DNA of 63,568 nucleotides, the filler included, from Reclinomonas americana ATCC 50394 (lineage: Eukaryota): the NCBI GenBank assembly GCA_048213135.1. It is 5 parts of 5 records of this genome, joined end to end, with 100 filler letters (N's around TTAATTAATTAA, not from the genome) between each part and the next. Parts side by side here need not be neighbours in the genome. Positions count along the whole stretch, not along the records: positions 31,913 to 60,528 come from PS015455.1; 4 more parts are not named here. The stretch is one strand, 5' to 3'. Below the pieces are notes generated by a model. It saw only the letters and a list, made by a program, of their open reading frames with translations, ran no database searches and was not told the origin of the DNA. The position numbers and the translations under genes were made by a program. How positions within the stretch are numbered: position 1 is the stretch's first letter; every line of letters starts with the position of its first letter. Shown here piece by piece: positions 38 through 60,796 of the stretch.

Positions 38-440
38 GTTCCACGTGCTGAAGGTGTACGAGAGCGATGTGGATGTGGAGAGCGCGTCGCTGAAGCCCGG
101 CGACCACAAGTGCTTTGTCACGGGCGGTGAAGACTTCCCGGTTCGGTTATACGATTTTGAGACGTTTGGCGAACGAGGTGACCTCCCTCCCTTCTGCCTC
201 TCCTTCTCGCCATGGTTGTACTCACTCCTTCAACGACCCGCAGAATGCAACCGCGGCCATCACGGTCCGGTACACTGCGTGCGATTCGCGCCCGACGGCC
301 TCTCGTACGGCTCCAGCAGCGAGGATGGCACCATTCGCATATGGACCGTCGGCGGCGGCGGAAGCAGCGTGGTCGCCGGTGGGCCCGCCGGTGCATCCGC
401 AGCAACTGCAGCCTCGCCAGTCTCCGACACTGAGGCATGA
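38..440 (+). CDS. STRAP: STRAP/UNRIP WD40 protein, 3' exons (38-177, 244-440); 5' part outside window
   Basis: Spliced peptide DVESASLKP...FVTGGEDF..RLYDF...ECNRGHHGPVHCVRFAPDGLSYGSSSEDGTIRIW matches the STRAP C-terminal WD repeats; intron 178-243 (GTGACC..CAG). Confidence 0.88.
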
Positions 441-680: not shown

Positions 681-2325
681 ATGCTGTCAGGGTTGCGTCG
701 ACTCGATGTGTACCCCAAGACGATTGAGGAGTTCAGTGTGCGCACCTACTCGGGTGCCGTGCTGACCATCATCTCGGGCCTCATCATCTTCATCTTGGTC
801 GTGGGCGAGCTGTCGTACTACTTGGCCACGGAGAGGCACGATCGCCTCGATGTGGATACGACACGTGGCGAGCGCCTCACCATTCGTTGCGTCAACGCAC
901 TCGTGCACACACACACACGCACGCACTCACACGCACGCGTGCAGACTTCAACATCACGTTCCCAAGGATCGCCTGCGACAGTTGCGTGTGTGCGCGAGTG
1001 TGACGCTCTCATTTCGCGCCATGGCGTGTCACTCACGCGCCTCTCTCTCTCTCTCTCCCTCCTTCTCTCCTCTGCTGCTGCTGCTGGTGCGTCGCTTCCC
1101 CGCGCACATGCACAGTTTTGACACTGGACGCTGTCGACGTGTCGGGTGAGCAGCAAGTGGCCATTGATCACAATATTATAAAAACGAGGATAGACGAGAA
1201 CGGGAACAAGGTGGTGTCACTCGGCGAGGCCAGTTGCGTCTCCACAGAGAGATGCATCTCAGCATCATGGTGGTGATCATTTGCGATCATCTCAAATTTG
1301 TTTTCTTCGTTTCACTGCAGAACTCGGTGAAGACGAGGCCTCGGTGGAGAAGGCCAAGGCGGCGTTGGCCACCCCCGGCAAGGACTACTGCGGCAGCTGC
1401 TACGGTGCCGAGCAGTCGCCCGGTGATTGCTGCAACACGTTGCGTGCAGGGCGGGAGGCAGCGACTCTACCCCGTCATGTGTTGATGGTCCTTGTCGGTG
1501 TGCAGTTGCGAGGAAGTGCGTGCTGCGTACCAGCGCAATGGCTGGGCCTTCTACCCGAACGAGTCGGTGGAGCAGTGCTTCCGTGAGATTCTCCAGCGTC
1601 GCATGCGTGGCAACATTATCGAGGGCTGCAACATCGACGGTCGTCTGCAAGTCAATCGGCTCGCCGGCAACTTCCACTTGTCGCCCGGGCGCTCGTTCCA
1701 GCTGCTGCATGCGGCGTCGGGTGCCTCGCAGACGAGTGAGCTCGATGTGACGCACACGATTCACACAATGGCGTTTGGTGAGGAGTTCCCCGGGCAGAAG
1801 AATCCTCTCGACAACATTCACCGCCCCACGTCTGGCGGCCTGGAGGTGTTCCAGTACTTTGTGAAGGTGGTGCCGACGTCGTACTCGTCCAGCCGTCGCT
1901 CGTACAAGACGAACCAGTACTCGGTCACCGAGCACGTAAGAAAGCTCGGCGCCAACACGATTGCGCGTGGAATCATGCCGGGAGTTTCGTTTCCTCTCGC
2001 TCTCCCTCTCTCCCTCTGTGTGTGTTGGTTTGGCAGGTTCGTGATTCTCACCTCGTCACGGTCTCCGACACAGGTGTTTTTCATCTACGATCTGTCGCCC
2101 ATCTCGGTGCACATCAAGGAAGACTCGCGCTCTTTCCTGCAGTTCCTCACGTCGGTGTGCGCCGTCGTCGGCGGCGTGATCACCATCTCCTCAATCGTCG
2201 ACAAGCTGCTGTACAACTTGTTGAAGAAGCTGGAGAAGGATCACAACCTCGGCAAGGTGAGCATGCTCACTGCGCGCTGTCTCGTCGATGTCTCCCTCAC
2301 TCATATGCATGCGCAGCCGTCGTGA
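681..2325 (+). CDS. ERGIC3: ER-Golgi intermediate compartment protein 3 / Erv46; exons 681-885, 945-980, 1116-1232, 1321-1438, 1506-1983, 2074-2256, 2317-2325
   Basis: LDVYPKTIEEFSVRT.SGA, LDAVDVSGEQQ, YCGSCYGAE...CCNTCEEVRAAY, EGCNIDGRLQVNRLAGNFHLSPG, FQYFVKVVPT, PGVFFIYDLSPI, FLTSVCAVVGG all join in frame via GT-AG introns. Confidence 0.95.
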
Positions 2326-2523: not shown

Positions 2524-5500
2524 TCATGCCAGCTCCTGTCGACGGTACTTGTCCTCGGGGAACAGCTGCGCCGAGACCACGCGGCCGGCAAAGAAACGCT
2601 TGTCCAGCCCGTTGATGGCCTGCTGCGCAGCTGTGGGCACACGCAAGACGAAGTGAGGAGGGGGAGAGAGAGTGTGAAGGCGCAGGACGGTTCGGACGCA
2701 ACAAGCTGGGCTGAGGAACACCACAAAGATGTTGACGTAGCCCTCGTCGGCAGCAGCACGCGGCGGTTGCACGTACTTGGTCACCACCTCCTGCTCAGTT
2801 CACACACACTGCTGTGTTAGCAAAACGACGCGAGACGCCCTCACAATCTCCCACCCAACGCAACGACGGCGCCGAATTTCGTGCACTCCTCGCGCACTTC
2901 CTCCTCCAGATTCTCGTCCACCTGATCCGGCGACACCATGTTCTTCAGCACCACCACGCGCGAAGCCTCGCCACGCGAGGCCAGCTGCTGCATGAGTCGC
3001 TGCCGATCGGCTGCCGAGCCAATGCTGACCGATTCCTCGCGCGCAATGCTCTCCACTTGTCCGGTGCCACGTCCAATGCCGCCGAGATTGCCAAACACGG
3101 CGGTCGCCGAGAACACTGATCGCGCATCATGAAAGATGGTGAGTCGTGGAGCAAAGGAGAAACGTGTGTGTGAGGCAAGCAACGCACTGGCCGGGCTGGC
3201 TTCCTGCGTGCCGCCAAGACCACCGTGGCTGGCGGCGGCCGCCGTTGCCATGCTGCCGGTGGCCGGTCCAATCTGCATTGGGAGACAGCATCGGTGATGA
3301 GCGAATTTGGAGTGAACAGGCAATGGGCAAACGTGCTCACCCGCAGCTTGCGGCCAGCCAACTCGAAACTGCGCACGGCGCACACGATCAGCAGGAGTGA
3401 AGAAATCAGCAAATTGTGTGCGACTGCATACCCATCCATGTGCTCCATGGCCATCTTGGCGTCCTCTGGCCTCTCAAACTCAACGAATCCATATCCGCGG
3501 TGCTTGCCGGTCTCTGGGTTCGGCTGCATTGACGAAGCAATGAAAAAATCGAATGAGAACGAGGCGGCAGAAAGAATGTGATCATGAATGGACGTGCGAA
3601 CCAGCAGCTGCACAGAGCGGATCGCTCCAAAACTGGAGAACAGCGACTTGATTTCGTTTTCACCCAGTTCCCACGCAATCGAGCCGACGTAGATGCGAGC
3701 TGCCGGGTTCACCGAGGCCACCAGACCAATCGGAGCACCAGCGATGCCGCCGGTCGCCAGAGCGTTGAAGCGAGCGCCGATGGCGGTCGCAGCCTGTTGC
3801 GCACGTGTCAGGGCGGCCTGCGCAGTGGCCGGGACGTTGAACATTACATTCGGTGTAGCCGACGGCGCCGGCGGCACCGGGTTGTTGGGACGGCCGACTT
3901 TCAGCACTCTGCGTCACGTGTAAGCACCAGATCATGCGAGACATGCGACAACGGCAGCGGCCGCAGCAGCAGCTGCGGCTGTCGACAAGAACAGAACAAA
4001 GAATGCAACCAAAACACCAAGACACAAACAAACAAACAAAACCAAACAAAAACACACAAAGAGCATTCGGTGAGGGAGAGGCCAGCAGCTCACACACATG
4101 CACTGCACTTGTTACCCTTTTGCCAGTGGTCACGCCTGTTATGATTTTTTCAAGCAACACACACGACAGCAACGCAAACACAATCCCAAACAACAGCAGC
4201 AAAAAAAGGGGGGACAGCAAACAGCAGACCGCAACAACAGAAAACAAAACACATCATCCGCGATCAGTTGCTCACGCCCGCACGATAACCATGGCAAGCA
4301 CCCACAGCAGCCCCGTGCACACAAACACGCACAAATACACAGAGAAATGTACTCGCCTGTTGCCGAGAGCGAATCCGTTCATGTACTGCATGGCCATTTG
4401 GGCACTCTGCACACACACACACACACACCGCACGTAAGTGGCCAGAAAATGAAGACACTCACACCGACAACAGCACCCACCTCCGCCGTCACATATTCAA
4501 TAAAGCAGTAGCCCTTGTGGCGATTGGTTTGTGGATCCTGGTTGGTCGGGGAGGGAGTGGATAGTGAGTCGGCATGGCAGGACTTGTTTGTTGCAAGTAC
4601 CATGTGACGCAACAAAGGTGAAGGAAATGTTGGCAATCGGACCAAAGCCCGAGAACGCTGCGCGAATGTCGGCCTCTGTCAACTCGTAGCTAATGGAACC
4701 TGCCAGTGCGTCACCACAGAAGGTAAGCGCACGAGCATGCAAGAGAGAGAGAGAAACAGAGACGGCTGACGCACCGACATAGATGCGCGAGGCCAGTGAG
4801 TTGGTTCGTTGCAGCTGCGCCTGGTAGTGCGCCTGCTGCAGCATTTGCTGCTGCAACAGAACGGCTTGCGCATTCACTGCGCGACGACGTGTGTGAGCGA
4901 GTCGCGAGACAATGACAAAACGAGAGGAGCACGCGACTCACTTGCTGGCGCCGGCGCACGCGTTGCATCACCAGCACCGCGACCCGGCGGCGACACGGAG
5001 CGTGAGCGCGAACGACGAGGCGAGCGTGAACGCGACAACGGAGAGCGCGATCTGCTGGAGCGACGGTGACGCGACGAGCGACTTGAGCGGTGCTTGTCGC
5101 GCTCTCGATGGCGATCACGCTCCCTCTCCCTCTCCCGATCACGATCCCGATCACGGTAGTCACGATCCTTGTCGCCGCGACGACTGCTGCTGCCACTGCT
5201 GCTCACATGCCGCCGACGCGGGCTTCCATCCTCTTCGTCACTGTCATCGGAGCGACGATGACGCGACGAGGAGCCAGTGCGATGTCGACTGTGTCGATGC
5301 CGAATGCGACGCATGTCGTCATCGTAGTCATCTCCAGGAACTGCAATCGGTTCCCCATCATCGTCGTCGTCGGAGCGTGGCGAGCTGCGTCTCCGCCGCT
5401 TCCGATCATCCCGAGAGAGACTGTCGGCGCGCGGCGACCGCGACCGCTTGCGTGACGACGATGTGCGCACTCGAGGCGACTTCTCGTTCTCTCTCACATC

Positions 5501-10654: not shown

Positions 10655-13600
10655 TCAGCGTAGCTCCGCCTGTAGCGACGAGAGACGCTGCAGCACACGG
10701 ATTTCGCGTTCGGCTCTTGTCGATAGTCTGTGGGGACGTGTGAGCGAAAGGAATCGTGTCGACAATGGGAAAGCGCGGCCCTCGCAAACAACAAACCTGT
10801 GCTGCTCATCGTGCATGAGGAGTGCCATGGGGTCACCGTGGTCGACCGCGAGAGCGGCAGCAGCAAACTCCTGTGCCTTGGCCGCGTCTTTTTGCTTCTT
10901 GATATCGGCAAGCGTCATGACTCGAACCTGATGCACTTGTGAGCATGTGACGCACAACCTCTTCCGCCCGTGAATTGCACTCTCACCGATGACTTGTTGC
11001 TGCGCATGCTGTGACTGGAGCTCTTGCGCCCTCCCAGCAGATCGAAACTGGTCTTCCGCTTTGCACCAGATGTGTTGCTGCGATTCGACATGGCCGACTG
11101 CGGCTGCCCGACGCCAGCCAGCGAGGTTGCCGACGGACCCTGCCGCTCCCTCTTGCGCTCTTGATGCGAGAGAGTACGCAACAGATTGCGAACCTCCTGC
11201 GCACGGTGGGTTAATAAGTCGTGACGCACAAGAGACAGCAATCACACACACACACACACGCGCGCAACTCCTGGCAGCGTGAAGCCGAGTGGATCGCGCA
11301 GCGACGGATACACGGCGAGTGCAATGTCCACCAGATCGAACATGACCACTGCCCGTTGGCCTTGCTCTGCGAGAAGCGTTTGAAAGTGAGTGATGTGGAG
11401 TGAATGTGTGCTGTTGCCACAAAGTGCTTGAGTTACCCATGTCTGGCGATGGTGAACGGAATCATGACAAGGCAATCAAAGGCAACAACAAAACAGTGCA
11501 GAGAGATAAAAGGCATAATGTGTGCAGTATTACGGGCGGGGCGGCAAGCGCGTGATGAGCTCCATGAAGCATGTACGAAAAACAGCAATCTCTATTCGAC
11601 TGCCAACACACACACACACGTCACCTTCCATGATCAGTAGTCGATCACCAGTCTGCTGCGCAAATCGTCCACACACAGAAGCAGGGGTGCGGATGGCGGC
11701 CTGTGGGAGCGGACCGGCTAGGAACGAGTCCATAGGTGAGGTGTTTGTCAGCTTGGCCAACATGTCGCCCGAGTCTGCATCATAGATGCGAACTTGGCAC
11801 GTTTCCGACACGGTGGCGCACTGGATACGTACAGATCAGCAACATACAACAGACACGACATCGACTGCAGCGTGTAGACCCACCATGTGGAAGTGAGGCC
11901 ACCACAGCATGTCGGCAATGGATTCCGGGCACTCCTCCAGCTTGACGGAGATCAGATGCTGACCTGCCAGCTGGTGTTCCTGCTTGGGCGAGAAGCGTGA
12001 CAGGGCCATCTGCACGCAAGACCGTCAGAGACACCCTCGACACTGGTTTCCGTCACACCACCACACAGTCACGCAACATCCGCTGGGCGCTCCACACTGC
12101 CGGCGGCTGCCGATGATGCGCCTGGCTTTCGCTGTACACCAGCAACGGACGACTGCGCGTCGGCGACATTATTCACATGCACAATGCCGTCGGCGTCACC
12201 CGACACCACCAAGCGAGATCGCGGTATCGAAACAAATGTGACACTGCGCTTATGTCTGGCGAGTACGTGCTCTTGCGTGGCTGTGAATTACAAAGAGCAT
12301 GAGGGTCGTGAAGCGCGCTCGTTGCGGTGGGTGGCCTCGTGACACAGCACCTGTAGTGAGATTCCAAAGCACGACGCCACCATTGGAGAGGCCGCACACC
12401 AACTGATCGCCCTCAGCACTGATGGCAGACGCCATGATGGGACTCGGGTGCAGCAGTTCACGATTCCCGCGCGGAGCCGTCAGCAGACCTGGAGAAACAC
12501 ACACACACACATGCTCATGAGCCACGACACGCATACACATCAACTGGCCCGTGCACGCAACTGTTTCCGGCTCCACTTCCCGAGGCTCCGCCAGCTGCTC
12601 CGACACCAGCAGGCAACCGACTCGGTGGCAGCGGCACCAAGCAGTGCAGGGTGACAGACAACGAGCCACGGTTGTACACGGCCACATGGCGGGTGACGCG
12701 ATACGGCAGCTGCCACAATGAGACGAAGATGCAGTTTAGCGACGACAAAGCAGATGATCCGTGTGTCTGGTGAATTCACCTCTGCGGCGCGAGATCGGTA
12801 GCCCGGCCCGCTGACAAAGTGGTACATGGGAATCACGCCGGCACCCGAGTCGAACACCGTGGCACCCGGTTCAATGGCAACCATGCCGGGAGGCACAGTG
12901 GGCTCTGGTGGCGCAGCAGCGGCGGCGGATGGTGGTGGACCCTGCGCAGGTGTCGTCAGCTTTACGACATGAATCATACTGCCCCATTCACGAGTCGCCA
13001 CCACTAACCTTGCCACCCTTCGCAGCAGGCGGTGGAGCAGCCGCGGCGGCAGGGGCTGGAANNNNNNNNNNNNNNNNNNNNNNNNNNNNNNNNNNNNNNN
13101 NNNNNNNNNNNNNNNNNNNNNNNNNNNNNNNNNNNNNNNNNNNNNNNNNNNNNNNNNNNNNNNNNNNNNNNNNNNNNNNNNNNNNNNNNNNNNNNNNNNN
13201 NNNNNNNNNNNNNNNNNNNNNNNNNNNNNNNNNNNNNNNNNNNNNNNNNNNNNNNNNNNNNNNNNNNNNNNNNNNNNNNNNNNNNNNNNNNNNNNNNNNN
13301 NNNNNNNNNNNNNNNNNNNNNNNNNNNNNNNNNNNNNNNNNNNNNNNNNNNNNNNNNNNNNNNNNNNNNNNNNNNNNNNNNNNNNNNNNNNNNNNNNNNN
13401 NNNNNNNNNNNNNNNNNNNNNNNNNNNNNNNNNNNNNNNNNNNNNNNNNNNNNNNNNNNNNNNNNNNNNNNNNNNNNNNNNNNNNNNNNNNNNNNNNNNN
13501 NNNNNNNNNNNNNNNNNNNNNNNNNNNNNNNNNNNNNNNNNNNNNNNNNNNNNNNNNNNNNNNNNNNNNNNNNNNNNNNNNNNNNCCGGCGCTGCTGCAG

Positions 13601-23815: not shown

Positions 23816-26648
23816 CTACACCGCCACATTCCACTGCTGCAGCACTCGCGTCAGCTGCTCGACAAACAGACGCGTCTCGAACGTATTCGTATTGGTGGTC
23901 ATCTCCAGGTACTGACTCAAGCACTGCACGGCGGTTTTGGCGAACGCAACCTGCGTCTGCGGTGGCAGCTGCAAAGTGGAGACGTCGTTGTACATGTACA
24001 CGTTGAGCATGCCGCGCGTGTACAGCACCGGCTCCATCCTAAACATCAGCACCGAGTCCTTGACCAGCACGCGCATCAACCTGGCGGCGATTCGGTCGAC
24101 AGCCTTCATGGCCTCGTGACGCTCGACCGACACTCCCAGCGTGTACACATTCTGCACACCGGCACACACACACACACATAGCGTGTGAGCCATCACCGCG
24201 ACACACAAGTCAAACATAGGGGGGCAAAAAAACGGCGAGCTCACCGTCGCCGTCCAGTCGAGACCCGAAAGCAACACGAAAATGACATTCTCGCGAGCCC
24301 ACGCCTCCCACGAGCTCCCGGGAACGACAGTGTCGGCGAGAGCCAAGTGATCGTCGTCGAATGTGAAGGCCGCCTGCACACGCCCACGCGAGTCAGCAGC
24401 GATTCGCCGTGTGAGTGATGAGGACTGGCGGGCGAACGCAACATCGGCATACTTGATCGAATCCACAATGTCGACGTTCGCCGTTGCTGACTTGCGGATC
24501 ACACGACGGGCCAGACCCACGTCCAGCAGTGTGTATTGGTCACTCATCCACCACGGCTCGCCAGCAATCTGCATCACACCGCGGAACAGGTACACGTCAA
24601 AGTTGTCCATGTTGGCCTCCAAGAACGCCGGCATGCTGAAAGCACCGTACTGCTCGTACAGGTGCGCCTCGTGTGACCTGCGGAGAGTAGTGAGTACGAA
24701 TACGACGCTGTCGTCGCTTCGTCGCATGACACGCACCAATACAGTCCAGGGAACACAACGCCCGGCACATGGGGCGTGATCAGTTTCCGGTACCACGCAG
24801 TTCCCATGAGATCCTGCGCCAAGACACGCACGTCTGTGCGGAACCGCAGACATGATTGCACGTAGCGCACCGCCGATGTCCCTATATCGGTGGACACCAA
24901 CAGCAGCGCGTTGGGTGGCAGCGGCCGCAGAATCGCCCAGCCCAGCTCCTCGAACACGATGCGGTCGGAGCGGTCGACATCGTGCCACACTCGCGCCACG
25001 TGCCACGAAGCCACCACAAGCAGCACTGCCACGGCAATCACCATCAGCGTGCGCGGATGCATTCGGCGTGTCTTCGTCGTCACCGTCGTGGTGGTGGTGG
25101 TGGTGGTGGTGGACGTAGTGTGCGCACAAACAGTGCACCGCTGCTCAACCCACTCGTACAGAACGCTCACGCCGAGACCGCACAAGACAAGTGCAGCGTG
25201 CAGCGGCTGCAACCAGAAACGCGAGACGATTTCAGCCCACACCGCAACGTCCGGATTGGCGTTGTTGCGGGCGCCGAAGAACACCATGTAGAAGGTGAGC
25301 ATGCTCAGGAGCAGCGGCACAAACATGCGCAGCATCCGAGCGTGTGCGCCGCCTTGACGAGTGCGGGTGACCGTGCGATAGAAAAAGTGCACCACGCCGA
25401 TCAGGAGGAGAACAGAACCGAGGCCGCCGGTGATGCGCTGCAGGCGATCACCAAAGAGGCCAATGGTGCGCATAATGTCGGGATCCATGGTGCCGAAGGG
25501 GTCGTCGCCGGGCACAAGGCGGAACGTGCCGTACTCCTGACGCAGCACGTGTCGGAGGAATTCCGCCAGTGTGGTGTGCGTTCCTGCGTGCGACCAGCCG
25601 CGATTCGTTCTCAGCGCTCTACGAGACAAGAAGAAGAAGAGAGGCAACGTACCCCACGACAGCGGCGTTGACGAGTACAGCGACGACAGCGGCAAGTACA
25701 AGTACGGTGAGAGGCCGAGCACACCGAGCACAGCGTACTTGGCGAGCAGCGATGGCTGCAACAGGAGCTCCATTCGCAGCGCCACGACAACGTACACGGC
25801 AAGCGGGAGCTGTGATAAAGGTGAGAGGAAGCGGCAGGCGACTTGAGAGAAGCGATCCGCGTACCACAAACAGCACGGCAGTGTGCTGGTTGGTCAGCGC
25901 CAGAGCACAGACAAAGACGCCCCACTGCGACCAGCGAATCGCACGAGCTGCGACGTCGAGAGCGGAGATGAGAAGCACCGCGGGCTGCGACAAACACAGA
26001 AGACGACGATTGCAACTGCTCGAATCCTGCAATGCGGAGCTGAACTCGACCGTAAGCCACAGAATGAGGCTGGTAAAGAGGTTGTTGAGGGCAAACACCT
26101 CCGCTCCAGTCGCATACTCCCACGTCCACGGACTCAGGTAGAAGAAGCCGGTGCACAGCATGGCGGCAGGAATGCATCGCCGAGTCACTCGGCAAATGAC
26201 ATAAAAGAGCGTGGCCGCCGCTGCCGCCGAGATGGCGGCATTCATCAGGTTCATCGCGTACGCCGGCTGCGCGCCGACGAGGCGCAGAGCTTCGATGCAC
26301 AGTTTGCTGACAATCATCAGCAGGGGATACCCCGGTGGATGCGCCACTCCCGCTTGCTCGGCTGCACATTGCGTGAGTGGCATGTGTGAGAGAGAGAGAG
26401 AGAGAGAGCGTGTCACCCACAACATGGTACGCACCAACGGCAATGATCTCGCCCGAGTCGCCGCCCGCAATGGAGGGGTACACCGTGCGGCCGAAGAGGA
26501 GGGCAAACACGCAGAAACACAGCAGTGTGCAACGACGCACAGTTGCCGCTGAGCTGAAGCAGTGCTCCGCCGATGCATTCTCCACTTGTTTGCTGTCTTT
26601 GCTGCTGACAGCCGCAGTCTCGGGGACCACCACCGCCGCTCCCTCCAT
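23816..26648 (-). CDS. TMEM260: TMEM260/DUF2723 multi-pass protein O-mannosyltransferase
   Basis: VYPSIAGGDSGEII..A...GVAHPPGYPL, TWEYATGAEVFALNNLF, LALTNQHTAVLF, GLSPYLYLP..SWG, FLRHVLRQEYGTFRL, IVSRFWLQ, ILRPLPPNALLL..D...AVRYVQSC; start codon inferred. Confidence 0.9.
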
Positions 26649-27109
26649 GTGCGGAAGATTATTTTGGCGCCAAACAAGTAGTTCCCGAAATTTGGCCCTA
26701 ACTCGAGAAGGAAGAAGGTCCATATTTGCTCCAGCGGTAGGGCGATTGACGCGCCACAAGAAGATATGCATCACGCGTTGAGAAGGGGCAAAGAAAAAGA
26801 ACTGTGTCACTCGGAAACGAGCGTTTCGATTCATTCCAAAATCGATTTGAACTTGGAGGTAAATATGGACCCACCCTTTGCGTCTCAGAAGAGGCATGAG
26901 GAGCAAACTCATCGAGCGCGTCTTGTTCATCGACGTTTCCCCTCCCAGTAGCTGATTAGAGAAGAGGAAACAAACAAACGTAGGCCACATCATGCAAGTT
27001 GTACGAACATGACCACACCACAGATTTTCTGACGAATCATTTTACTTGCATACGGCATCCACACCACCACTCTCTGTCTCTCTATCTGCTGTCTATCTAT
27101 TATGCGTAC

Positions 27110-34878: not shown

Positions 34879-34997
34879 CCGTCTTCCCTCGCGCTCACAT
34901 CTCCATATCGCAGCAATCGGTTCATCGGCGTTCTCTTCACCTTCGTTGCGTCGTTCCCCTCTCTTCTTCTTCTCTTTACGAGCGAGAGTTGTGAATT

Positions 34998-37900
34998 ATG
35001 CGGCTTCTGAGTCCCACTGACCTCGAGCGGCTTCAGCGATGGTCATACTCGGTCGACGACAGGAGTGTGACCACACAAATGTTCCGCTCTTGTCTCTCTC
35101 ACACACACACACACTCACACTAACTCTCTCTCTCTCTCTCTCTCTTCCTCACACTCACATGTTACGCGCAGTTACTCTCCACTGTGGAACTGGGCAGTGC
35201 AGCTGCTGCCAAAGCACCTCGCACCCAACGTGTTGCGTTTCACACAAACACACATACATTAACTCACACTCTCTTTCTCTCTCAGTCGCTCACTTTTCTC
35301 TCCCTCTCTCTCACACACACACACACACACGCACACTCGCTCACTCACATAGACCCACAGAAAGACACATACTTGTAAACAACAACTTCTCAATTCAGCT
35401 CTTACTTCCCTCCCCTCTTCTCCCCCCTTCTCCCCTCTTCTCTCCCCTTCTCCCTCCCACTCTCTCCCCTGTCTTTTTTCTGTGCAGTGTGTGTGATTTT
35501 CTCCGCGGTATAACTCACTCTTATGTTGATTGCATTCGTACATACAGTGTTACTCTGGCCGGCTTCCTCATGTGTCTGTTTGCGGGATACGTATCGATTC
35601 CGTCGGCGGCGACCGCGGGAAGTGCGTGGCCGCCGCTGGTGGCTGCCATTTGCATCTTTGTGTATCAGCATTTGGATGCACTCGACGGGTGAGGATGCCC
35701 TGGGTTTTTGATTGTGTTGGTGGCTGGGAGGCGCAGCGTTGCTTGTGCTTTTGTGTGCTGTGGCTGGCAGGTCTCTTGTTGTCTGTCGCATCGATAGTCT
35801 TGCATGCCGTCGATTCTCTCGTCTTGGCGGCTGATATCTCCCTTTTGTTGAAGTTGTCCTTTTGCCTCGTCCGCAGAGTCGCGTAGAAAAGCGTCCAAGT
35901 CGGTGCATACTTGTCTTTCCAGTCACTCGGAACTGTTTCCAACCTCGTACCATCTGCTTCGTCAATCTCTCTCTCTCTCTCTCTCTCCGCTCTTTCTTCT
36001 CTCGCGTTGAGAAGACGTGCGCACTCTTCTCTGTCTGTTTCTTTTTGCCTCGTGGAATTCGCGTTTAAGTTCGCTGTGCGCTTGCTTTCGTTGCATTAAT
36101 TCGAGACGATCTCTCTCTCCCTTGCTCTTTCTCTCTCTCTCTCTCTCTTTCTCTCTCCTCCCCCCTCTCTCTCTCGTCGACGTCCCTCTTTCGTTCTGTG
36201 CTTGCCGTACTCAGCCTCGACTACTCTTGTGTTTCTCCTCCTTTCCCTCCTTTGTGTACCTGTGTATGCCTTCCATCTCGTTCTCGTTGTTTTATCTCGC
36301 TCATCCACCCGCCTGCGCAGAAAACACGCGAGGAGAACGCACTCATCATCCCCAGTCGGCGAGCTGTACGATCATGTTTCGTGCTGGCCCACCGTCATTC
36401 CCACCACCAACACCCCCTGTTGATCACTCGCTCTATCTCTACCTGTACCGTCGCAGGTATCTGACGCCCTCGGCCTCGCCGGTTGCATCTTTTCCGGTTT
36501 CTGGTGCACGGGCATGCGAGAAGGTGTGTGTTTTTCACTGTCTGTGTGTCTGTGGACTCCTCCTCTCTCTCACACACACGTGCGTGTCGCCCACAGTCGC
36601 CATTCTGCGCTTGCTCATGTTTGGCGGAGCGTGCATTTTCTTGCAAGCGCACACCGCCGGTCAGTCATTCCTTCAGTCACCCTTCTCTTCTGCTGCGCTC
36701 CCCTTCCCACCCCCTGCCGTGCACCACACAGCACTCCACAAGGGCGTGACGGCGTTTGGGCGGTTCAGTGGACCCGGCGAAATGCTCTTCTTCCTGCAGC
36801 TGCTGCTCGTGTTGCGGTCCCTCGACATCTTTCTCGGCACCAACATCATTCCGGCCGTTGTCGTGCCCCTGGTGGAGACGCCCGCCGGCAAGACAACCAT
36901 GCTACACACCATTACAGACTGGGCGGTATGTGCACGTGTGAGTGGGAGGTGTATTTTTGTCACCGTCGCTGACGTGGAGCATGTGCAGCTGGTGCTCGCT
37001 GTTGTGTTCTGTGCGGGACGCTTGGCCCTTGACGTCCTAGGCGCCGAGTACAGCACGGTGAGTTGCATGTGCCGTCTCTGCATCCCCGTCGGCTTGCTGA
37101 CCATCGATCACCCTGGCAGCGATTCGGCTTCTCGGCATGCCTACTCATGGCATGCTGGAAGTGGCGGTCCGTATTTATCCCTGGCGTGTGGCGACATCGC
37201 GCTCTGGAGCCTGCACACGACGCCTCCAACCTGCTTGACGTTACGTTGTTGCCTCGCTGACGAGCTTGCGGGTATTGCAAGACTGACATTCGGTCTGCAG
37301 TTGCTGGCCATTGGTGGCTTCTTCTCGGTGCTGACATGTGAGGCCATTGTGTGCAAGATGGCAAGGTGGGTCTTCCCTCTCACTCTTTCTCTCTCTCTGC
37401 GCGCACTCGCTTCACTGCTTCGCGTATTCGCCTCACTCTCTTTCAGTCGCCGTCAATCACAATCTCGTTGCACACGCTCACTTGTTGTCTTTTTCTTTGT
37501 CTCCTTCGCCGTGTTTCCTAAACTCACCTCACTCGCTCGTCGTCACTTGTCTCACTCGCTCTCTTCTTCCCCCTCTCGCTTTCATCGCCTCGTGTCTTCT
37601 CCATGTTCTCTCGCTTCGTGCGCTCACAGTCTCTCACCTCGATTTCTCGCTGTCCCCCGCTTCACTCTTTCTCCCTCTGATCTGTTGCCTCATGTCTTCA
37701 CCATCGTTCTCCACTCCTTCGCCCGTTAATTTTCTCTCTGTTACTCACTCGCTGCCATTTTCTTCAAGGACTCGCTGTCTGTTGCCAACCCTCTCGTTGG
37801 TTTTGTCTCACTCGTTCACTCGCTGCTCGTCCGCTTTCTCTCGCCTCACATGCTCACTTCTTAATTCTCTTCCACTCCTCATATCTCTTCTCTCTTCCAT

Positions 37901-38765
37901 TCTCCTCTCCCCTTACTCCCTCTTCGCTTCATCTCTTTGCCCCATCCCACAGACCTCGACCATTCCACCCACTGGTGGTCGCCGTCTCCTTCGTCACCAT
38001 GTTCCGCTTCGGTCTCGGCGACGGTTGCGTGCATTTCCCCCGTTGTTCGCTTCCCTTTTTTCCACCGCATTCAACTCGCAGCACTTGGCAGGCCTGCTGG
38101 ACTTGGTCTTCACCGTGTTCTACGTCGTCAAATTGGTGCGAAGCAAACACCTCTCGCTCGCGCTCTTCTCTCTCGCTAACTTCTCTCTCTCTCTCTCTCC
38201 TGTAGTTCGACGAAGGCTGCCACGGCCTCGGCATTCCCATGTATGGCCTCGTGTGCCGCGTCTACTGCGAAGGCGTGTACGACTTGACGCACATGGGCCA
38301 CGGTGCGTCTTCCTCTCCTCCTCCTCCCTTCAGTTTAATCACCGCCTAACCCTCGCGATTGCCACCACTCCAGCCAATCAAATGAAGGCCGCCCGCAGCC
38401 TGGTACCGACCGGCCAATACTGCCACCTGGTAGTGGGCGTGCTCTCCGACGACGACGCCACGCGCATCAAGCAGCGGCCCGTCGTGCTGCCGCTGGAGCA
38501 ACGAGTGGAGAACGTGCGCGCTTTCCGCTTCGCCGACGAAGTGATCCCCGCCGTGCCCAGCGAGGTGCTCTCAGCCGAGTTCCTCGACACGCACCACATC
38601 GACATGGTCGTGCACTCTCCCGAGTACGGCCAAGCACGGTACGCAGTGGCGCACGAGCGCGGCCTTGCGAAATTGCTGCCGGAAACCGACGGTATCTCCA
38701 CCACTGCCATTATCGATCTCGTGCGCGGTCATCCCGAAGTCCTGCGCCTCAGGAGCACCACCTAA
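34998..38765 (+). CDS. Fusion of CDP-alcohol (choline/ethanolamine-type) phosphotransferase and C-terminal HxGH cytidylyltransferase, paralogue 1
   Basis: MRLLSPTDLERLQRWSYSVDDRS..., [39 protein letters not shown]; then RVYCEGVYDLTHMGH, LVVGVLSD, EQRVENVRAFRFADEVI, ETDGISTT; all joined in one frame. Confidence 0.85.
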
Positions 38766-38793
38766 AAAATATCCAACTGCGTGCACGCGCTCC

Positions 38794-38837
<44 letters not shown>

Positions 38838-38938
38838 CAGAAAAATCACTGTGTTTCTCTACTATCGATTCGTTAAATTTGTAGCAATTGATCGGCAGTC
38901 GCTTGTTCGCTGGGTTTCTGGTTGCACACAGGCTACAG

Positions 38939-39247
38939 CAGCTGTCTTGATGACCAACTACAACCATATCCAAAATGCATCAACACAAACACCATATGGC
39001 CATATCTTGAGGACAGCGGCAGGTTTCTTGTGTTTATTCGCTCTCGGAGCTTCGAACATGTACAAGTCGCAGCAACAACAACAACTTACTAATCCAAACA
39101 GCAACACGGCTGCATGATGATCATTATCTTGAGTAAGTATCTGAAACTGAGACATCACGAATAAAAGCGAGAAAAATCGAGATGGCAACGCAGCGCTGGC
39201 GTTTCTATCGTACACGGCACATCGAATTCGGAAAAGGTCAGAGCCGG
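38939..39247 (+). repeat. Dispersed intergenic repeat, copy A
   Basis: Collinear blocks shared with the reverse complement of 61386-61622 (CAGCTGTCnTGATGACCAA, CATCAACACAAACACCA, CTCTCGGAGCT, ACACGGCACATCGAATTCGG). Confidence 0.8.
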
Positions 39248-39723
39248 ATCCGGATCTACGGAGAAAGCAACAACAGTGGAGGCCAGTCCTTGTTGGTGCT
39301 GGACCACTTTAAAATACATCAACGCGACCAGCCGAGCGTTTCTGCGTTGCATTTTGCTCCATTGCTTCGTGCATACGCAGTCCAATTCTGGAGGTTTCTG
39401 CAGAGAAGTGCGTCAAGAATGAATGCACACAAAAGGCTTCACGCACATTTGTCGCATCCTGCCCAACCGCACTGTTTCCTGTGCTGCAGACCGCATACGC
39501 ACAGCGTCGGATCCCCTTCACTTGCAATTGCAGCGATTCTGATTCCGAACACGTAGAAAAATGCTGCTTATAGCTTCACATCTTTCGTGAACAGCTTCGC
39601 CGTTCATGGTTGCACTAGGCCATCCAGACATTGGCTGCTTGCCTAATTATGAACGAAGTTGCAATCGGTTCATCCGCTGCGGATCTGTCGACCGTTACCA
39701 GCTTCTCAATTTCTCCGCAAAGC

Positions 39724-41770
39724 ATGGGCGGCTTCTTCGAGTTGCTCACCCCACACAATGTGGACGAGCTGCGTCGATTCCGCGACTCAGTCGTCGACCG
39801 CAGTCTCACCTCCAAGTGGTCCGCACACACACACAAACACAAAAACACACACGAAAAAGAAGACATGATTGCATTCACTCACTCTCTCTCTCTCACACAG
39901 GATGGCCCCACTGTGGAATCGTGCACTCGCATGGATCCCAGGTAAAAAAACACACACACGCATCACGTTGCACACACTCTTTTACATGCATTCAGTCATT
40001 CATTCATTCTCATATTGTCTCACTCGCATTCTTCACTCTCTCCTTGCCTGTCTTCCTCCGTCATTCTGTCGCCATACACTCTCTCCTTCTCCTCATTCTT
40101 TTCCGTGCTCTTTCTACTCTCTCCTTCTCTTCACCCCCCTTCCCTGACCCCCTTCTCCCTCACTCCCTTCTCCCTCTCCCTTTCCCCTTCTCCTCCCCTG
40201 CAGCCCACGTCCCCCCCAACATCATCACCCTCGCGGGCCTCCTCACCGCCTACTTTGCCGCCTACATCACCTACCCGCTGTCATACGCCGCCGGCGACAG
40301 TCACAACGCCGCACCGGCCGCAGTCGCCGCCGCCGTGGCCTCGTGGACGTGGGTGCGCCCGGTGCGCCCACTCGTCGCCGCCCTGTGCTTGATTGCGTTT
40401 CAGATGATGGAGGCGCTGGATGGGTGAGTCGGAGTGGGAGAAGGGGGATGTGACTGGAGAGCTGACTTCTGTGACTTTGGAAAGGCGTCATGCTCGGCGA
40501 GTGCGACAGGCGTCGTCGCTGGGAGCGATTTTCGATCACAGCTGTTTCGTGGCTCGCTGCGTGTGTTGTTCTGGCTCTTTGCTCCATTTCTCACGGCTTT
40601 TGTTGTGCAGGCTCTGCACTGGCCATTGCCCCGATCACCATGGCGTGGTACTGGAGTCTTGGATTCCACGATAGTTCCGTTGTAGAGCTCCCCCCTCCCC
40701 TTTCCCCCTCCCCCTCCCTTCCCCTTATCCCCTCCCACAGTCATGCTGCTCCGCGTCATCCTCTTCACCCTGCAATGCCTGTTCCTGAGCCTGCATGTGC
40801 GAGCGCTCCTCCGCGGCCGCCTCGAATACTTCAAGTTTGAGGTCGGCGAGCTGCTGATCGCCCTCGAGGCCCTGCTTATCTGGCGCTCGTTCGACATGTG
40901 GGTCGACGGCGACGTCTGGGGCCACGTGGTGGTCCCCTTTGTGGAGCAGTACACGGCGGCCACCTTTGCTCGCATCTCCTTTGATTTTGGCGTGAGCGCC
41001 TGCGTCGTGCTGGTGCTCGGAGCACTGACGATGCACTGCCTGAAGGTCGACTACAGCACTCGCAACGGCCTGGTGTTGTGGTGAGTGCATGTCTGTGCAC
41101 CGGCACTGCGTTGACGATTGCATCTCAGCGCGCCTTTATTTTTCTTTGTGCAGCCTCGGCATGGCCGTCTTCAAGTGGGTGTGGGTTCTCTTCCCCGGTG
41201 TGTGGCGTTCGGGCACGCCCAGTTTGGACTCGTGGGAACTCGTGGACATTTTCGGCATGAACATGTTCTTTGCTGTGCTCACCTGTGAGGTGGTACTGTG
41301 CAAGATGGCACGACCGCGCCCGTTCCACTCGCTGGTCGTCACTGCCGCGTTTGTCACCGTGTTCCGTTTCGGTTTCGGCAACGGCACGCTCGATCTGGTC
41401 CTCGGCATCACCTACTTCTTCCACGTTCTCAACGAGCTGACCCACAAGCTGTCGCTACCGCTCTTTGCGAATGTGGTGCGCGTGTATGTCGACGGCGTCT
41501 ACGACATTACGCATTACGGGCATGGTGAGTGGAGCGGAGGGGGAGAGGGTGGGTGTGAGTGCAAGTGTGCCCACCACCAGTATTATTGCGCAGCGAACCA
41601 GATGAAGGCGGCCAGGGAGGTTGTGGAGCCTGGTCAATACTGCCACTTGATTGTTGGCGTGGTCGGTGATGGTGAGTCTTCGAGAGATTTCCTCTTGCAA
41701 ACTAGCTGACAAGTCCATATTCTGTCACCAGCTGTCTTCTTCTTCTTGTCTCTCTTTCTCTGTCGTGAGA

Positions 41771-41815
<45 letters not shown>

Positions 41816-42393
41816 GTACAATCTCTGTAATGTGTTCCCAGTCAAGCCCGTTCTCTACCACCAGCTGTTTTCTTGTCTCCCTCGCTATTCTGTCATGCGA
41901 CTTTTTTCTCTTGCACTTTCTCTGTTGTGTAGTCCATTCTCCGTCGCCAACCTTATCATACTTTGTCGTGAGGCTACATCTTTGTTTCTCTTTCTCAATC
42001 CTCTGTGCTGTCGACTTTGTCTTTCCAGTCCAGCTCATTCTCTGTCGTCAACGGTCTCCTTTTCTTTCTCCGTCGTGAGACTTCTCTTTGTCTCTCTTTC
42101 TCGTTCCTCAGTGCTTGCTGTAACCGTCTGTCGTCCTTCTGTGTTTCTCGCTCTCTGCTGTGAGACTTCCCATTGTCTCTCTGTCTCTCGTCTCGCACGC
42201 TCTTTGTGATGAGCTCCCAGTCTAGTCCATTCTCTGTCATCAACTGTCTCTTTTGACTTCTCTTTGTCTCTCTGTCTCTCTGTCTCTCTGCTCTCGCGCA
42301 CTCTCTGTGTTCCGAGTCTAGTCCATTCTCTGTTTCTGTGTGTGTGTCTCTCTCTGTCTCTCTCTCTCTCTCTCTGTCTATCTCTCTCTCTTC

Positions 42394-42458
<65 letters not shown>

Positions 42459-43087
42459 ATTCCCTGTTTCACTTATCACCACCCGTTCGCTGTTTGGTTG
42501 CCTTCCTCCCCCTCCCCCTCCCCCTTCTCACCCCTTCGCCTTCTTACCCCTTCCACAGAGGACGCCTCTCACTACAAACGCCCCCCTGTACTGAACTGCG
42601 AGCAACGCTGCAACAACGTGCGCTCGTTCCGCTTTGTCGACGAAGTCGTGCCAAACGCACCATGCTTTGGCCTCACCGACGACTTCTTGGACGAGCACCA
42701 GATCCACCTGGTGGCGCACTCGATCGAGTACGAGAAGCCCGACGACATTTACTATGCCGTGCCGCGTCGTCGTGGAATGACTCGAGTTGCGTGCGTGTGA
42801 AGAAACACTCTCTCTCACTCTCTCTCTCTCGCTCTCGATTTCTCCGTGTCTTTCTTTCCCAGCTTTCTCCTCGTCTTCCCCTCTTTCCCCAATTTTCCTC
42901 TTTCTCCTCTGCTGTCTTCCTTTCCTACTCTTCTCCTCTGTCTCATTCTCGTTTCTGTGTGCAGATTTTGCCGCGCACCGAGGGCATCAGCACCAGCGCA
43001 ATTATCGATCTTGTGCGCAATCGACCAGACCTCATTCAGCGTCCGACGACGACGGCAGCTGCTGCGGCAGCCGACGTCAAGAAGTGA
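39724..43087 (+). CDS. Fusion of CDP-alcohol phosphotransferase-like domain and C-terminal HxGH cytidylyltransferase, paralogue 2
   Basis: PPNIITLAG, FQMMEALDGRHARRVRQASSLGAIFDHSCS; then RVYVDGVYDITHYGH, HYKRPPVL..EQR..VRSFRFVDEVVPNAP, ILPRTEGISTS; collinear with paralogue 1. Confidence 0.85.
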
Positions 43088-43518: not shown

Positions 43519-43651
43519 AATCGATCTGATCTCGCCAACAAGAAAATGCGTAATGTTTCACACCCGCATGGTTTCGCTGGTACGGTGCGGGACCGTTGGT
43601 CTCATCCTGCCTACTCTCTCTCATCCCTCCCTTCTTTCCCCCACAGACTCA

Positions 43652-44103
43652 ACGCAATCACCACACAGTTTCGCTGGTATTCTGCAGATCTCGTCTTATC
43701 TTCTTTCCTTCTCCCATCCCCTCTCCCCATGTAACTCACTCTCCCTTTCTCCCTATCATGCTTCTCTCTCGCATAGTCTCTATCATTCTGTCTTAGTCTC
43801 TCTTTCTCTCCTTCTCCTCTCCCCTTCCCTACCCCTCCTCCCTCTCCCTTCTCCCCCCAAACTCCACGCAATCACCACACAGTTTCGCTGGTATTCTGTA
43901 GATCTCGTCTTATTCTCTTCCCTTCCCCCTTCCCCTCTCCCCATGTAACTCCCTCTCGCTTTCTCTCTTTCTCATTCTCTCTTATTATGTCTCTCGCATA
44001 GACTCTTTCATTCTATCTCAGTCTCCTTCTCCCTCTCCCTATCCCCTTCCCTACCCCTCCCCTCCCTCTCCCATCTCCCCCCAACTCCACGCAATCACCA
44101 CAC
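43652..44103 (+). repeat. ~215-bp tandem duplication (two full units plus start of a third)
   Basis: ACGCAATCACCACAC at 43652, 43866 and 44089; the first two are followed by AGTTTCGCTGGTATTCTGnAGATCTCGTCTTAT. Confidence 0.85.
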
Positions 44104-60527: not shown

Positions 60528-60796
60528 CNNNNNNNNNNNNNNNNNNNNNNNNNNNNNNNNNNNNNNNNNNNNTTAATTAATTAANNNNNNNNNNNNNNNN
60601 NNNNNNNNNNNNNNNNNNNNNNNNNNNNGCAAGGGAAGGAACAGGGGGAGGGAGAAGGGGGAATGAACAGGGGGAAGGAAAAGGGGGAAGGAGAAGGGGG
60701 AGAGAAGGGGGAATGAGAAGGGGGAATGAGAAGGGGGAAGGAGAACGTCAACACTGCGAATAGCTTAACAAGCAGCACCACAAGATGCAACGCAAC

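Follow-up and report, generated by a model that had tools for sequence, protein, structure and literature searches.

Introns modelled in nuclear DNA of Reclinomonas americana ATCC 50394 (NCBI GenBank assembly GCA_048213135.1) fall into two classes according to their 5' splice sites, or donors: an ordinary class, preceded almost always by G, and a second class, GTTNCGT, which rarely has that G and reads as the ordinary motif displaced by one base. The stretch of DNA analysed, hereafter the window, comprises 63,568 nucleotides (nt), is about 58% G+C with many runs of N, and holds two tandem paralogous fusion genes, P1 and P2. Among the intron positions that P1 and P2 share exactly, donor class differs at two of four, each time together with the last exon base (position -1). 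We favour the reading, to which we give a probability of roughly 0.6, that both forms genuinely serve GT-AG introns as 5' splice sites and represent one motif in two registers, served by the same U2-type machinery. The two paralogues are:

34998..38765, plus strand: P1, a fusion of CDP-alcohol phosphotransferase and cytidylyltransferase; 14 exons, 506 amino acids, uninterrupted open reading frame (ORF).
39724..43087, plus strand: P2, with the same fusion architecture; 10 exons, 538 amino acids, uninterrupted ORF.

The sample consisted of 54 introns modelled in seven genes of this one 63.6-kb window: P1, P2, an ERGIC3/Erv46-like gene, the 3' part of a WD40 gene, an RRM gene, a TMEM260-like gene and an unnamed gene, G7. 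Exon models were made by hand, by coordinates, and all junctions were placed so as to keep the reading frame, obey the GT-AG rule and align with homologues without gaps, with homology setting the codon-level position of a junction and the GT-AG rule alone its position to the base. Junctions of the fusion genes were compared pairwise with 21 fusion homologues chosen from 57 relatives, for gapless alignment within ±5 residues, and those of the ERGIC3-like gene with 26 homologues; the models of all seven genes are free of internal stops. Donors starting with GTTNCG were assigned to class 2 and the remaining donors were termed ordinary, and the base at +7 was not used in choosing junctions.

Of the 54 introns, 53 are GT-AG and one is GC-AG, a count that is circular as a sign of GT-AG membership since the models were built under that rule; 20 introns (37%) have class-2 donors and 34 have ordinary ones. 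By position, the composition of the class-2 donors (n = 20) and the ordinary donors (n = 34) is as follows:

Position -1: class 2, G 1, A 7, C 4, T 8; ordinary, G 32.
Position +3: class 2, T in 20/20; ordinary, G in 25/34.
Position +4: class 2, G in 14/20; ordinary, A in 17 and C in 11 of 34.
Position +5: class 2, C in 20/20; ordinary, G in 29/34.
Position +6: class 2, G in 20/20; ordinary, T in 21 and C in 8 of 34.
Position +7: class 2, T in 18/20; ordinary, no preference.

The difference in G at -1 (1/20 class-2 donors compared to 32/34 ordinary donors) is highly significant (p = 2.2e-11, Fisher test). G at -1 is also present in two ordinary donors, GTTAGT and GTTCGC, that combine T at +3 with G at +5, and the rule at -1 therefore tracks the position of the G and not the presence of the T. 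These predicted junctions lead us to conclude that a second donor class exists.

The predictive value of the 7-mer was determined on the sense strand of six genes, corresponding to 14.8 kb of pre-mRNA. GTTNCGT occurs there at 19 sites, of which 16 are donors, 3 are exonic and none lies within an intron, and GTTNCG[A/C/G] occurs at 15 sites, one of them a donor; GGTRNGT yields 14 donors at 18 sites. T at +7 is present in 16/17 donors compared to 3/17 non-donor GTTNCG sites. Within modelled exons, GTTNCGT is found at 692 and 41361 on the plus strand and at 23950 and 11182 on the minus strand; these copies appear unused, and those at 692 and 23950 carry the G at -1 that class-2 donors avoid. A GTTGCGT preceded by C is found at 34945 (plus strand), 53 nt before the start codon of P1, and may be the donor of an intron in the 5' untranslated region. 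More copies of GTTGCGT that lack G at -1 and run into CT-rich or low-complexity sequence are located at 7219, 8584, 47385 and 49560 on the plus strand and at 60796, 54036 and 28918 on the minus strand, and these seven sites are likely class-2 donors of unmodelled genes.

When each class-2 position p is set against ordinary position p-1 in the list above, the two motifs coincide save for one base, the one that would face C8 of the U1 small nuclear RNA (snRNA). In this shifted alignment the G at class-2 +1 falls on the ordinary -1 G, T at +3 on T at +2, the G-rich +4 on the G-rich +3, G at +6 on G at +5 and T at +7 on T at +6, while the composition at class-2 -1 (A 7, C 4, G 1, T 8) resembles that at ordinary -2 (A 12, C 7, G 5, T 10). 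The commonest forms of the two classes, G^GTGCGT and ^GTTGCGT (the caret marks the exon-intron border), have a single difference as 7-mers, GGTGCGT compared to GTTGCGT. Among all 680 pairings of an ordinary with a class-2 donor, 54 differ at one position of the shift-aligned 7-mer, and 52 of these are that same consensus pair.

The following introns of P1 and P2 were used to compare donor classes, with the number of fusion homologues in which each junction is gapless:

35081..35171, plus strand: P1 intron 1, class-2 donor AAT^GTTCCGCTC, phase 2, 91 nt; gapless in 21/21.
39819..39900, plus strand: P2 intron 1, ordinary donor GTG^GTCCGCACA, phase 2, 82 nt; gapless in 21/21.
36524..36596, plus strand: P1 intron 5, ordinary donor AAG^GTGTGTGTT, phase 1, 73 nt; gapless in 16/21.
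40674..40740, plus strand: P2 intron 5, class-2 donor ATA^GTTCCGTTG, phase 1, 67 nt; gapless in 16/21.
36376..36456, plus strand: P1 intron 4, class-2 donor CAT^GTTTCGTGC, phase 0; gapless in 21/21.
40544..40610, plus strand: P2 intron 4, class-2 donor GCT^GTTTCGTGG, phase 1; gapless in 21/21.
35232..35547, plus strand: P1 intron 2, class-2 donor CGT^GTTGCGTTT, specific to P1; gapless in 20/21.
37240..37300, plus strand: P1 intron 9, class-2 donor GAC^GTTACGTTG; gapless in 21/21.
38024..38091, plus strand: P1 intron 11, class-2 donor ACG^GTTGCGTGC; gapless in 1/21.
42786..42964, plus strand: P2 intron 9, class-2 donor CGA^GTTGCGTGC; gapless in 21/21.

P1 intron 11 has the sole class-2 donor with G at -1, and its model is gapless when compared to the uninterrupted exon of P2. 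Intron 1 of P1 and of P2 (pair 1) falls at the same alignment column, 31, in phase 2, and intron 5 of P1 and of P2 (pair 2) at column 159 in phase 1. Exactly shared positions number four (introns 1, 3, 5 and 13 of P1, corresponding to introns 1, 3, 5 and 7 of P2) among 13 P1 and 9 P2 introns. An initial annotation of this DNA had placed the four donors of pairs 1 and 2 at 35081, 39819, 36524 and 40674, with intron 1 at the same codon and phase in both genes, a second pair differing in class, and the shifted form going with a non-G at -1. These observations are confirmed at the level of sequence: pair 2 is ordinary in P1 and class 2 in P2, and T and A precede the GTT forms in pairs 1 and 2, respectively, with G preceding the ordinary form in both. 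Nearby, P1 intron 4 and P2 intron 4 both begin with GTTTCGTG yet are separated by 4 nt in the alignment of the coding sequences (phase 0 and phase 1, respectively), an offset that could be intron sliding or two separate gains. P1 intron 2 and P2 intron 2, as well as P1 intron 8 and P2 intron 6, are near one another and several codons apart.

Because the bodies of same-position introns are unalignable beyond CA/CT low complexity, 'homologous' is used here to mean the same position and phase only. Introner-like, near-identical intron bodies were not found among five same- or near-position pairs, each also compared to introns of similar length: similarity was limited to the first 7-9 bases and to CA/CT low complexity, and the body comparison scored 4 for pair 1, a value reached by 5 of 200 interior shuffles, and no better than controls for the other four pairs. 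Intron turnover since the duplication is high, with the four shared positions set among 13 and 9 introns, and the introns of P1 and P2 could therefore have been gained independently at the same sites, with no interconversion of donors. This is unlikely in our view. The paucity of exactly shared positions, the three near pairs and the unalignable bodies are what parallel gain would leave, but it has to account for the same column and phase in both pairs and for a rare donor variant, TCCGC, found in the pair-1 donors alone and suggesting descent, and at the 47% identity of the two proteins (235 identical of 501 aligned residues) loss of intron-body similarity is expected anyway. Class-2 donors make up 2/8 of the P1 and P2 introns at shared positions and 6/14 at paralogue-specific ones; that class-2 introns are simply young was ruled out by their lack of enrichment among the paralogue-specific introns.

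The two pairs are not alike in how their donors differ. In pair 1, GGTCCGC (P2, counted with its -1 G) and GTTCCGC (P1) have one difference, and TCCGC occurs in no other of the 54 donors; because this rare variant is common to these two alone, the pair-1 donors are probably related by descent. The initial annotation had the paired introns differing by exactly an extra T, which is true of the opening 6-7 intron bases in pair 1 (GTTCCGC compared to GTCCGC) and fails for its intron body and for pair 2, where the difference is one of class only and not of one T. An inserted T together with a change at -1, or one G/T substitution together with a one-base move of the cleavage site, fits the letters of pair 1 equally well. 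In the substitution reading, the class-2 -1 base can be read as the ordinary -2 base and no separate coupled change is involved, and since both pair-1 introns are in phase 2 this path would need a compensating 1-nt change in the exon.

It is most improbable that class 2 is an artefact of the gene models, with the true junctions at other nearby sites. What lends this some weight is that three donor-blind automated intron searches missed most introns supported by homology, so that junctions were made by hand: enrichment of hexamers at ORF edges gave no discrimination (42% of 7515 GT sites passed compared to 40.5% of GTTNCG sites), and a codon-usage Viterbi gene finder and local flank scoring each missed most of them. 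Moreover, both borders of ERGIC3 intron 4 can be moved one base to the right with the same protein resulting. Every border shift of that kind breaks GT-AG, however, the junctions are gapless at codon resolution when compared to the 21 and 26 homologues, and T at +7, though unused in junction choice, splits donors from non-donor GTTNCG sites as described above.

Apart from their donors, introns of the two classes resemble a single U2-type population. CAG acceptors are found in 20/20 class-2 and 32/34 ordinary introns (GCAG in 13/20 and 22/34), the branch-like motif YTNAY lies within -50..-9 in 17/20 and 31/34, the pyrimidine fraction is 0.65 and 0.66, and median length is 72.5 and 70.5 nt (p = 0.55), respectively; a loose branch motif and pyrimidine stretch, as in U2-type introns, are thus present in both, and donors of the two classes are intermixed within genes. 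Across all 54 introns the acceptor consensus extends to GCAG in 35, and lengths are mostly 55-93 nt, the minority that measure 135-887 nt being filled with low-complexity CT/CA sequence.

U12-type introns carry the 5' motif [A/G]TATCCTT and the branch motif TCCTTRAY, and conversion from U12 to U2 type at a fixed intron position has been described. Class 2 could accordingly be pictured as a strongly diverged, U12-like lineage of the minor spliceosome, with the paralogue differences as type conversions, and its rigid, extended 5' motif, its lack of a -1 G preference and its mixing with ordinary introns of the same genes would suit that picture. We consider it very unlikely, as [A/G]TATCCTT was found in 0/20 class-2 donors and TCCTTRAY-like branch motifs in 0/54 introns (last 45 nt), the YTNAY motif, CAG/GCAG acceptor, pyrimidine content and length are all as in ordinary introns, and a share of 37% lies far above known minor-intron shares (0.36% in human, according to the available text of PMC4856993).

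Under the reading that we favour, there would be a single recognition motif, approximately G-[G/T]-T-G-C-G-T. Where its second base is G, the intron would begin at that base (G^GTGCGT), giving an ordinary donor with G at -1; with T in that place, GT is available only one base further upstream, and cleavage would follow it there (^GTTGCGT), giving a class-2 donor. The last exon base of a class-2 donor would then occupy the ordinary -2 position, which has no G preference, and the -1 G would be missing because cleavage sits one base upstream, before the sole available GT. The logic would be that of a one-base shift in the U1 pairing register: class 2 would go without one G:C pair by the cleavage site and would be held to a strict intron side (+3 T, +5 C, +6 G, +7 T). 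Over evolutionary time, the donor of an intron that stays in place would change from one class to the other, and this would be why the intron 1 and intron 5 pairs of P1 and P2 differ in class. We infer that splicing proceeds as modelled, with one spliceosome for both classes and with either a non-canonical U1 5' end or a second U1.

The initial annotation had gone as far as proposing that donors interconvert between classes in a manner coupled to the -1 base and that one spliceosome, with no separate intron lineage, handles both. This interpretation is partly supported. Coupled interconversion accords with the class difference at two of four shared positions and with the tie to -1, and is tempered by inheritance being read from position alone; a common spliceosome accords with the like 3' ends, branch motifs and lengths and sits less easily with how poorly class 2 pairs with canonical U1. 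A change of donor class where two introns share a position is no proof that one machine removes both, and a single spliceosome for both classes is plausible.

A number of results weigh against our preferred reading. Counting both strands of the whole window, G precedes 3/39 GTTNCGT and 16/82 GTTNCG[A/C/G] sites, a difference that is not significant on its own (p = 0.11). The donors of pair 2, GGTGTGT and GTTCCGT, differ at 3/7 shift-aligned positions, and the 1-nt exon compensation required along the substitution path is unobserved, both focal pairs keeping their phase. Junctions were chosen under GT-AG and the class was defined post hoc; seven genes from one window are a small sample; and splicing at all junctions is predicted from frame, GT-AG and homology. 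The models of the RRM gene and G7 come from a stop-free frame and lie outside the set checked against homologues, and intron 5 of the TMEM260-like gene (donor 24442), which is class 2, 69 nt long, in frame and without a stop, is probably real and could be exon. Pairing to U1 is a further difficulty. Duplex energies computed with the canonical U1 5' end, taken as the 11-mer printed in PMC4856993, average -0.9 kcal/mol for class 2 (n = 20) compared to -7.3 kcal/mol for ordinary donors (n = 34), and a full helix in the +1-shifted register (+1 at C9, +3 at A7, +6 at C4) forms in 2/20 class-2 donors. Finally, the strict C at +5 is unexplained by a simple shift on canonical U1.

On canonical U1, positions -1, +1 and +2 of ordinary donors fall at C9, C8 and A7 in 31/34 cases, whereas class 2 is predicted to be barely complementary to this 5' end in any register, with the caveat that the organism's own U1 may differ. 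The class-2 +5 C (20/20, compared to C at ordinary +4 in 11/34; p = 3e-07) would lie opposite a uridine of canonical U1, with which A would form the better pair. Since canonical U1 barely pairs with class 2, an altered U1 5' end or a second U1-like RNA is predicted, and the pairing model suggests that the U1 5' end of R. americana would be non-canonical or that a second U1 would be present. With an illustrative, hypothetical U1 end complementary to GGUGCGU, ordinary donors reach -8.6 and class-2 donors -6.2 kcal/mol, and 13/20 class-2 donors have +3 at A7 and +6 at C4, 8 of these with +1 at C9. A hypothetical end complementary to GUUGCGU gives -9.7 kcal/mol for class 2, with all 20 donors in one register, and -5.0 kcal/mol for ordinary donors.

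These energies bear on whether the two classes are read through two recognition channels, with a dedicated second U1-type snRNA complementary to GUUNCGU and the rest of the major spliceosome in common. Variant U1 snRNAs with changed 5' ends occur in animals, and a dedicated snRNA would fit a consensus that is rigid at 6/7 positions, including a +5 C that canonical U1 could not pair, the near-zero pairing of class 2 with the canonical 5' end, and the pairing of all 20 class-2 donors in one register by the motif-complementary end. We hold it to be possible and rather unlikely: a scan of the window returned 0 Rfam matches, hence no snRNA gene was seen there (nor any tRNA with ARAGORN), a single altered U1 serves both classes in the model (-6.2 and -8.6 kcal/mol), and the likeness of class-2 -1 to ordinary -2 fits one motif in one physical register. 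To one motif in two registers we tentatively add a bolder proposal, which we would put somewhat below even odds: that this lineage rewrote its U1 5' end or added a U1, and that more than one third of its GT-AG introns are used one base out of register via GUUNCGU, flipping between classes by a single G/T change with exon compensation.

The proteins of P1 and P2 each combine a membrane part resembling CDP-alcohol phosphotransferases, at the N-terminus, with a cytidylyltransferase at the C-terminus. A match to PF01467 is given by the last exon of P1 (E = 2.4e-07) and, weakly, exon 9 of P2 (E = 0.0035, below the curated cut-off), and the HxGH motif is present in both. The CDP-alcohol phosphotransferase motif is DG(x2)AR(x8)G(x3)D(x3)D. 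P1 has this motif along with the HxGH domain, and in P2 its last Asp is Ser: P2 reads DHSCS (40530-40620), compared to DHVSD in P1 (36360-36470) and DHxCD in most homologues, and with this fourth Asp changed to Ser the transferase half of P2 may be inactive. P1 aligns along its full length with the 21 fusion homologues, and an exhaustive profile-free search with P2 exon 7 recovered the 57 relatives, many of 470-600 amino acids and matching across the domain joint. The same fusion architecture is found in Cyanophora paradoxa, Thecamonas trahens and Pteridomonas danica. The Cyanophora paradoxa homologue P0001 has a 33-residue insert between the conserved 'P..V' and 'APN', near intron 2 of P1 and P2, that looks like an intron read through in its annotation. 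Just 3' of P2, at about 43640-44100 on the plus strand, direct repeats of about 214 nt were seen by eye, with two full copies and one partial copy, each including GTTTCGCT.

The remaining introns of the sample belong to the following genes:

681..2325, plus strand: ERGIC3/Erv46-like gene, Pfam PF13850 and PF07970; ORF of 381 amino acids, 6 introns, 5 of them class 2.
886, 981, 1233 and 1439 (GTTGCGT) and 1984 (GTTTCGT), plus strand: class-2 donors of the ERGIC3-like gene.
2524..5239, minus strand: RRM splicing-factor-like gene, Pfam RRM_1; 11 introns modelled, 3 of them class 2 (donors 4613, 2864 and 2702).
23816..26723, minus strand: TMEM260-like gene, Pfam PF11028; 6 introns, one of them class 2 (donor 24442).
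10987..13061, minus strand: unnamed gene G7; 8 introns modelled, 3 of them class 2 (donors 12561, 12077 and 11268).
39..440, plus strand: WD40 gene, 3' part, Pfam WD40; one ordinary intron, donor GAG^GTGACCTCC at 178.

Junctions of introns 1, 2, 4 and 5 of the ERGIC3-like gene are gapless in 26/26 homologues and that of intron 3, in a variable stretch, in 1/26. The best match of its protein is from Andalucia godoyi (47% identity), and a metagenome scan with an ERGIC3 exon returned 5 loci at no more than 45% identity. Matches to the TMEM260-like protein have at most 37% identity and partial coverage. The spliced G7 model has one frame without stops, the other two having 7 and 8. The RRM splicing-factor-like gene, which we take to be PUF60-like, contains the GC-AG intron (4356-3909, minus strand; CAG^GCGAGTACA), the sole non-GT donor among the 54.

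Few eukaryotic signals are as strongly conserved as the 5' splice-site consensus and the 5' end of U1, and to our knowledge U1 registers that are shifted or bulged have been seen in human genes alone, as rare exceptions. If the bolder proposal is true, R. americana would offer a natural example, on the scale of a genome, of 5' splice sites recognised in a shifted register. The P1 and P2 pairs give a first hint of one evolving donor population instead of two lineages. A genome with about one third of its donors shifted would offer a natural system for studying how U1, U6 and U5 fix the cleavage point, and would reveal whether splice sites and the 5' ends of snRNAs evolve together and how donors change their mode of recognition while the reading frame stays intact. 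Class-2 introns would escape gene finders that were trained on standard donors, and the insert in Cyanophora P0001 is a possible example. Human 5' splice sites read by U1 in a shifted or bulged register were reportedly described by Roca and Krainer in 2009.

No published description of GTTNCGT donors was found in full-text searches of the literature, including work on protist consensus sequences and on Cyanophora; most subscription journals fall outside this coverage, and a prior description may exist. The known systems compared here are taken as they appear in the available portions of the cited reports. In human, shifted and bulged U1 registers were validated at 5' splice sites with canonical U1, and validated non-canonical registers account for 1.5% of 201,541 5' splice sites, with U12-type sites at 0.36% (Tan et al., 2016, PMC4856993). 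As at those human sites, GT is kept at +1/+2 in R. americana with the pairing motif one base off and GU setting cleavage, and +1 G replaces -1 G and +6 G replaces +5 G; unlike them, the shifted form is found in 20/54 modelled introns, has the rigid GTTNCGT motif and is predicted to be unpaired with canonical U1. Class 2 resembles U12-type introns in its rigid, extended 5' motif, its lack of a -1 G preference and its scattering within genes of ordinary introns, but differs from them in its 5' motif, in the absence of a U12 branch site, in 3' ends like those of ordinary introns and in being far more common.

The dependence of 5' splice sites on -1 G and +5 G is known (available text of PMC8283771), and LUC7 proteins define two classes of 5' splice site in animals and plants (as far as the available text of bioRxiv 10.1101/2022.12.07.519539 and PMC11842720 goes). 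Similar to the LUC7 classes, the donors described here lean either to the exon side or to the intron side, and absence of the -1 G goes with a stronger intron side; the LUC7 classes, however, share one register and one consensus, whereas here the intron-side class is displaced by one base, with T at +3 and C at +5. In the tunicate Fritillaria borealis, non-canonical 5' splice sites without complementarity to the U1 5' end occur genome-wide, and a shifted register has been raised as a possibility (available text of PMC13326754). Many introns of the R. americana window are likewise predicted to lack complementarity to the canonical U1 5' end, but while Fritillaria borealis breaks the GT/AG rule, 53 of the 54 introns modelled here keep it.

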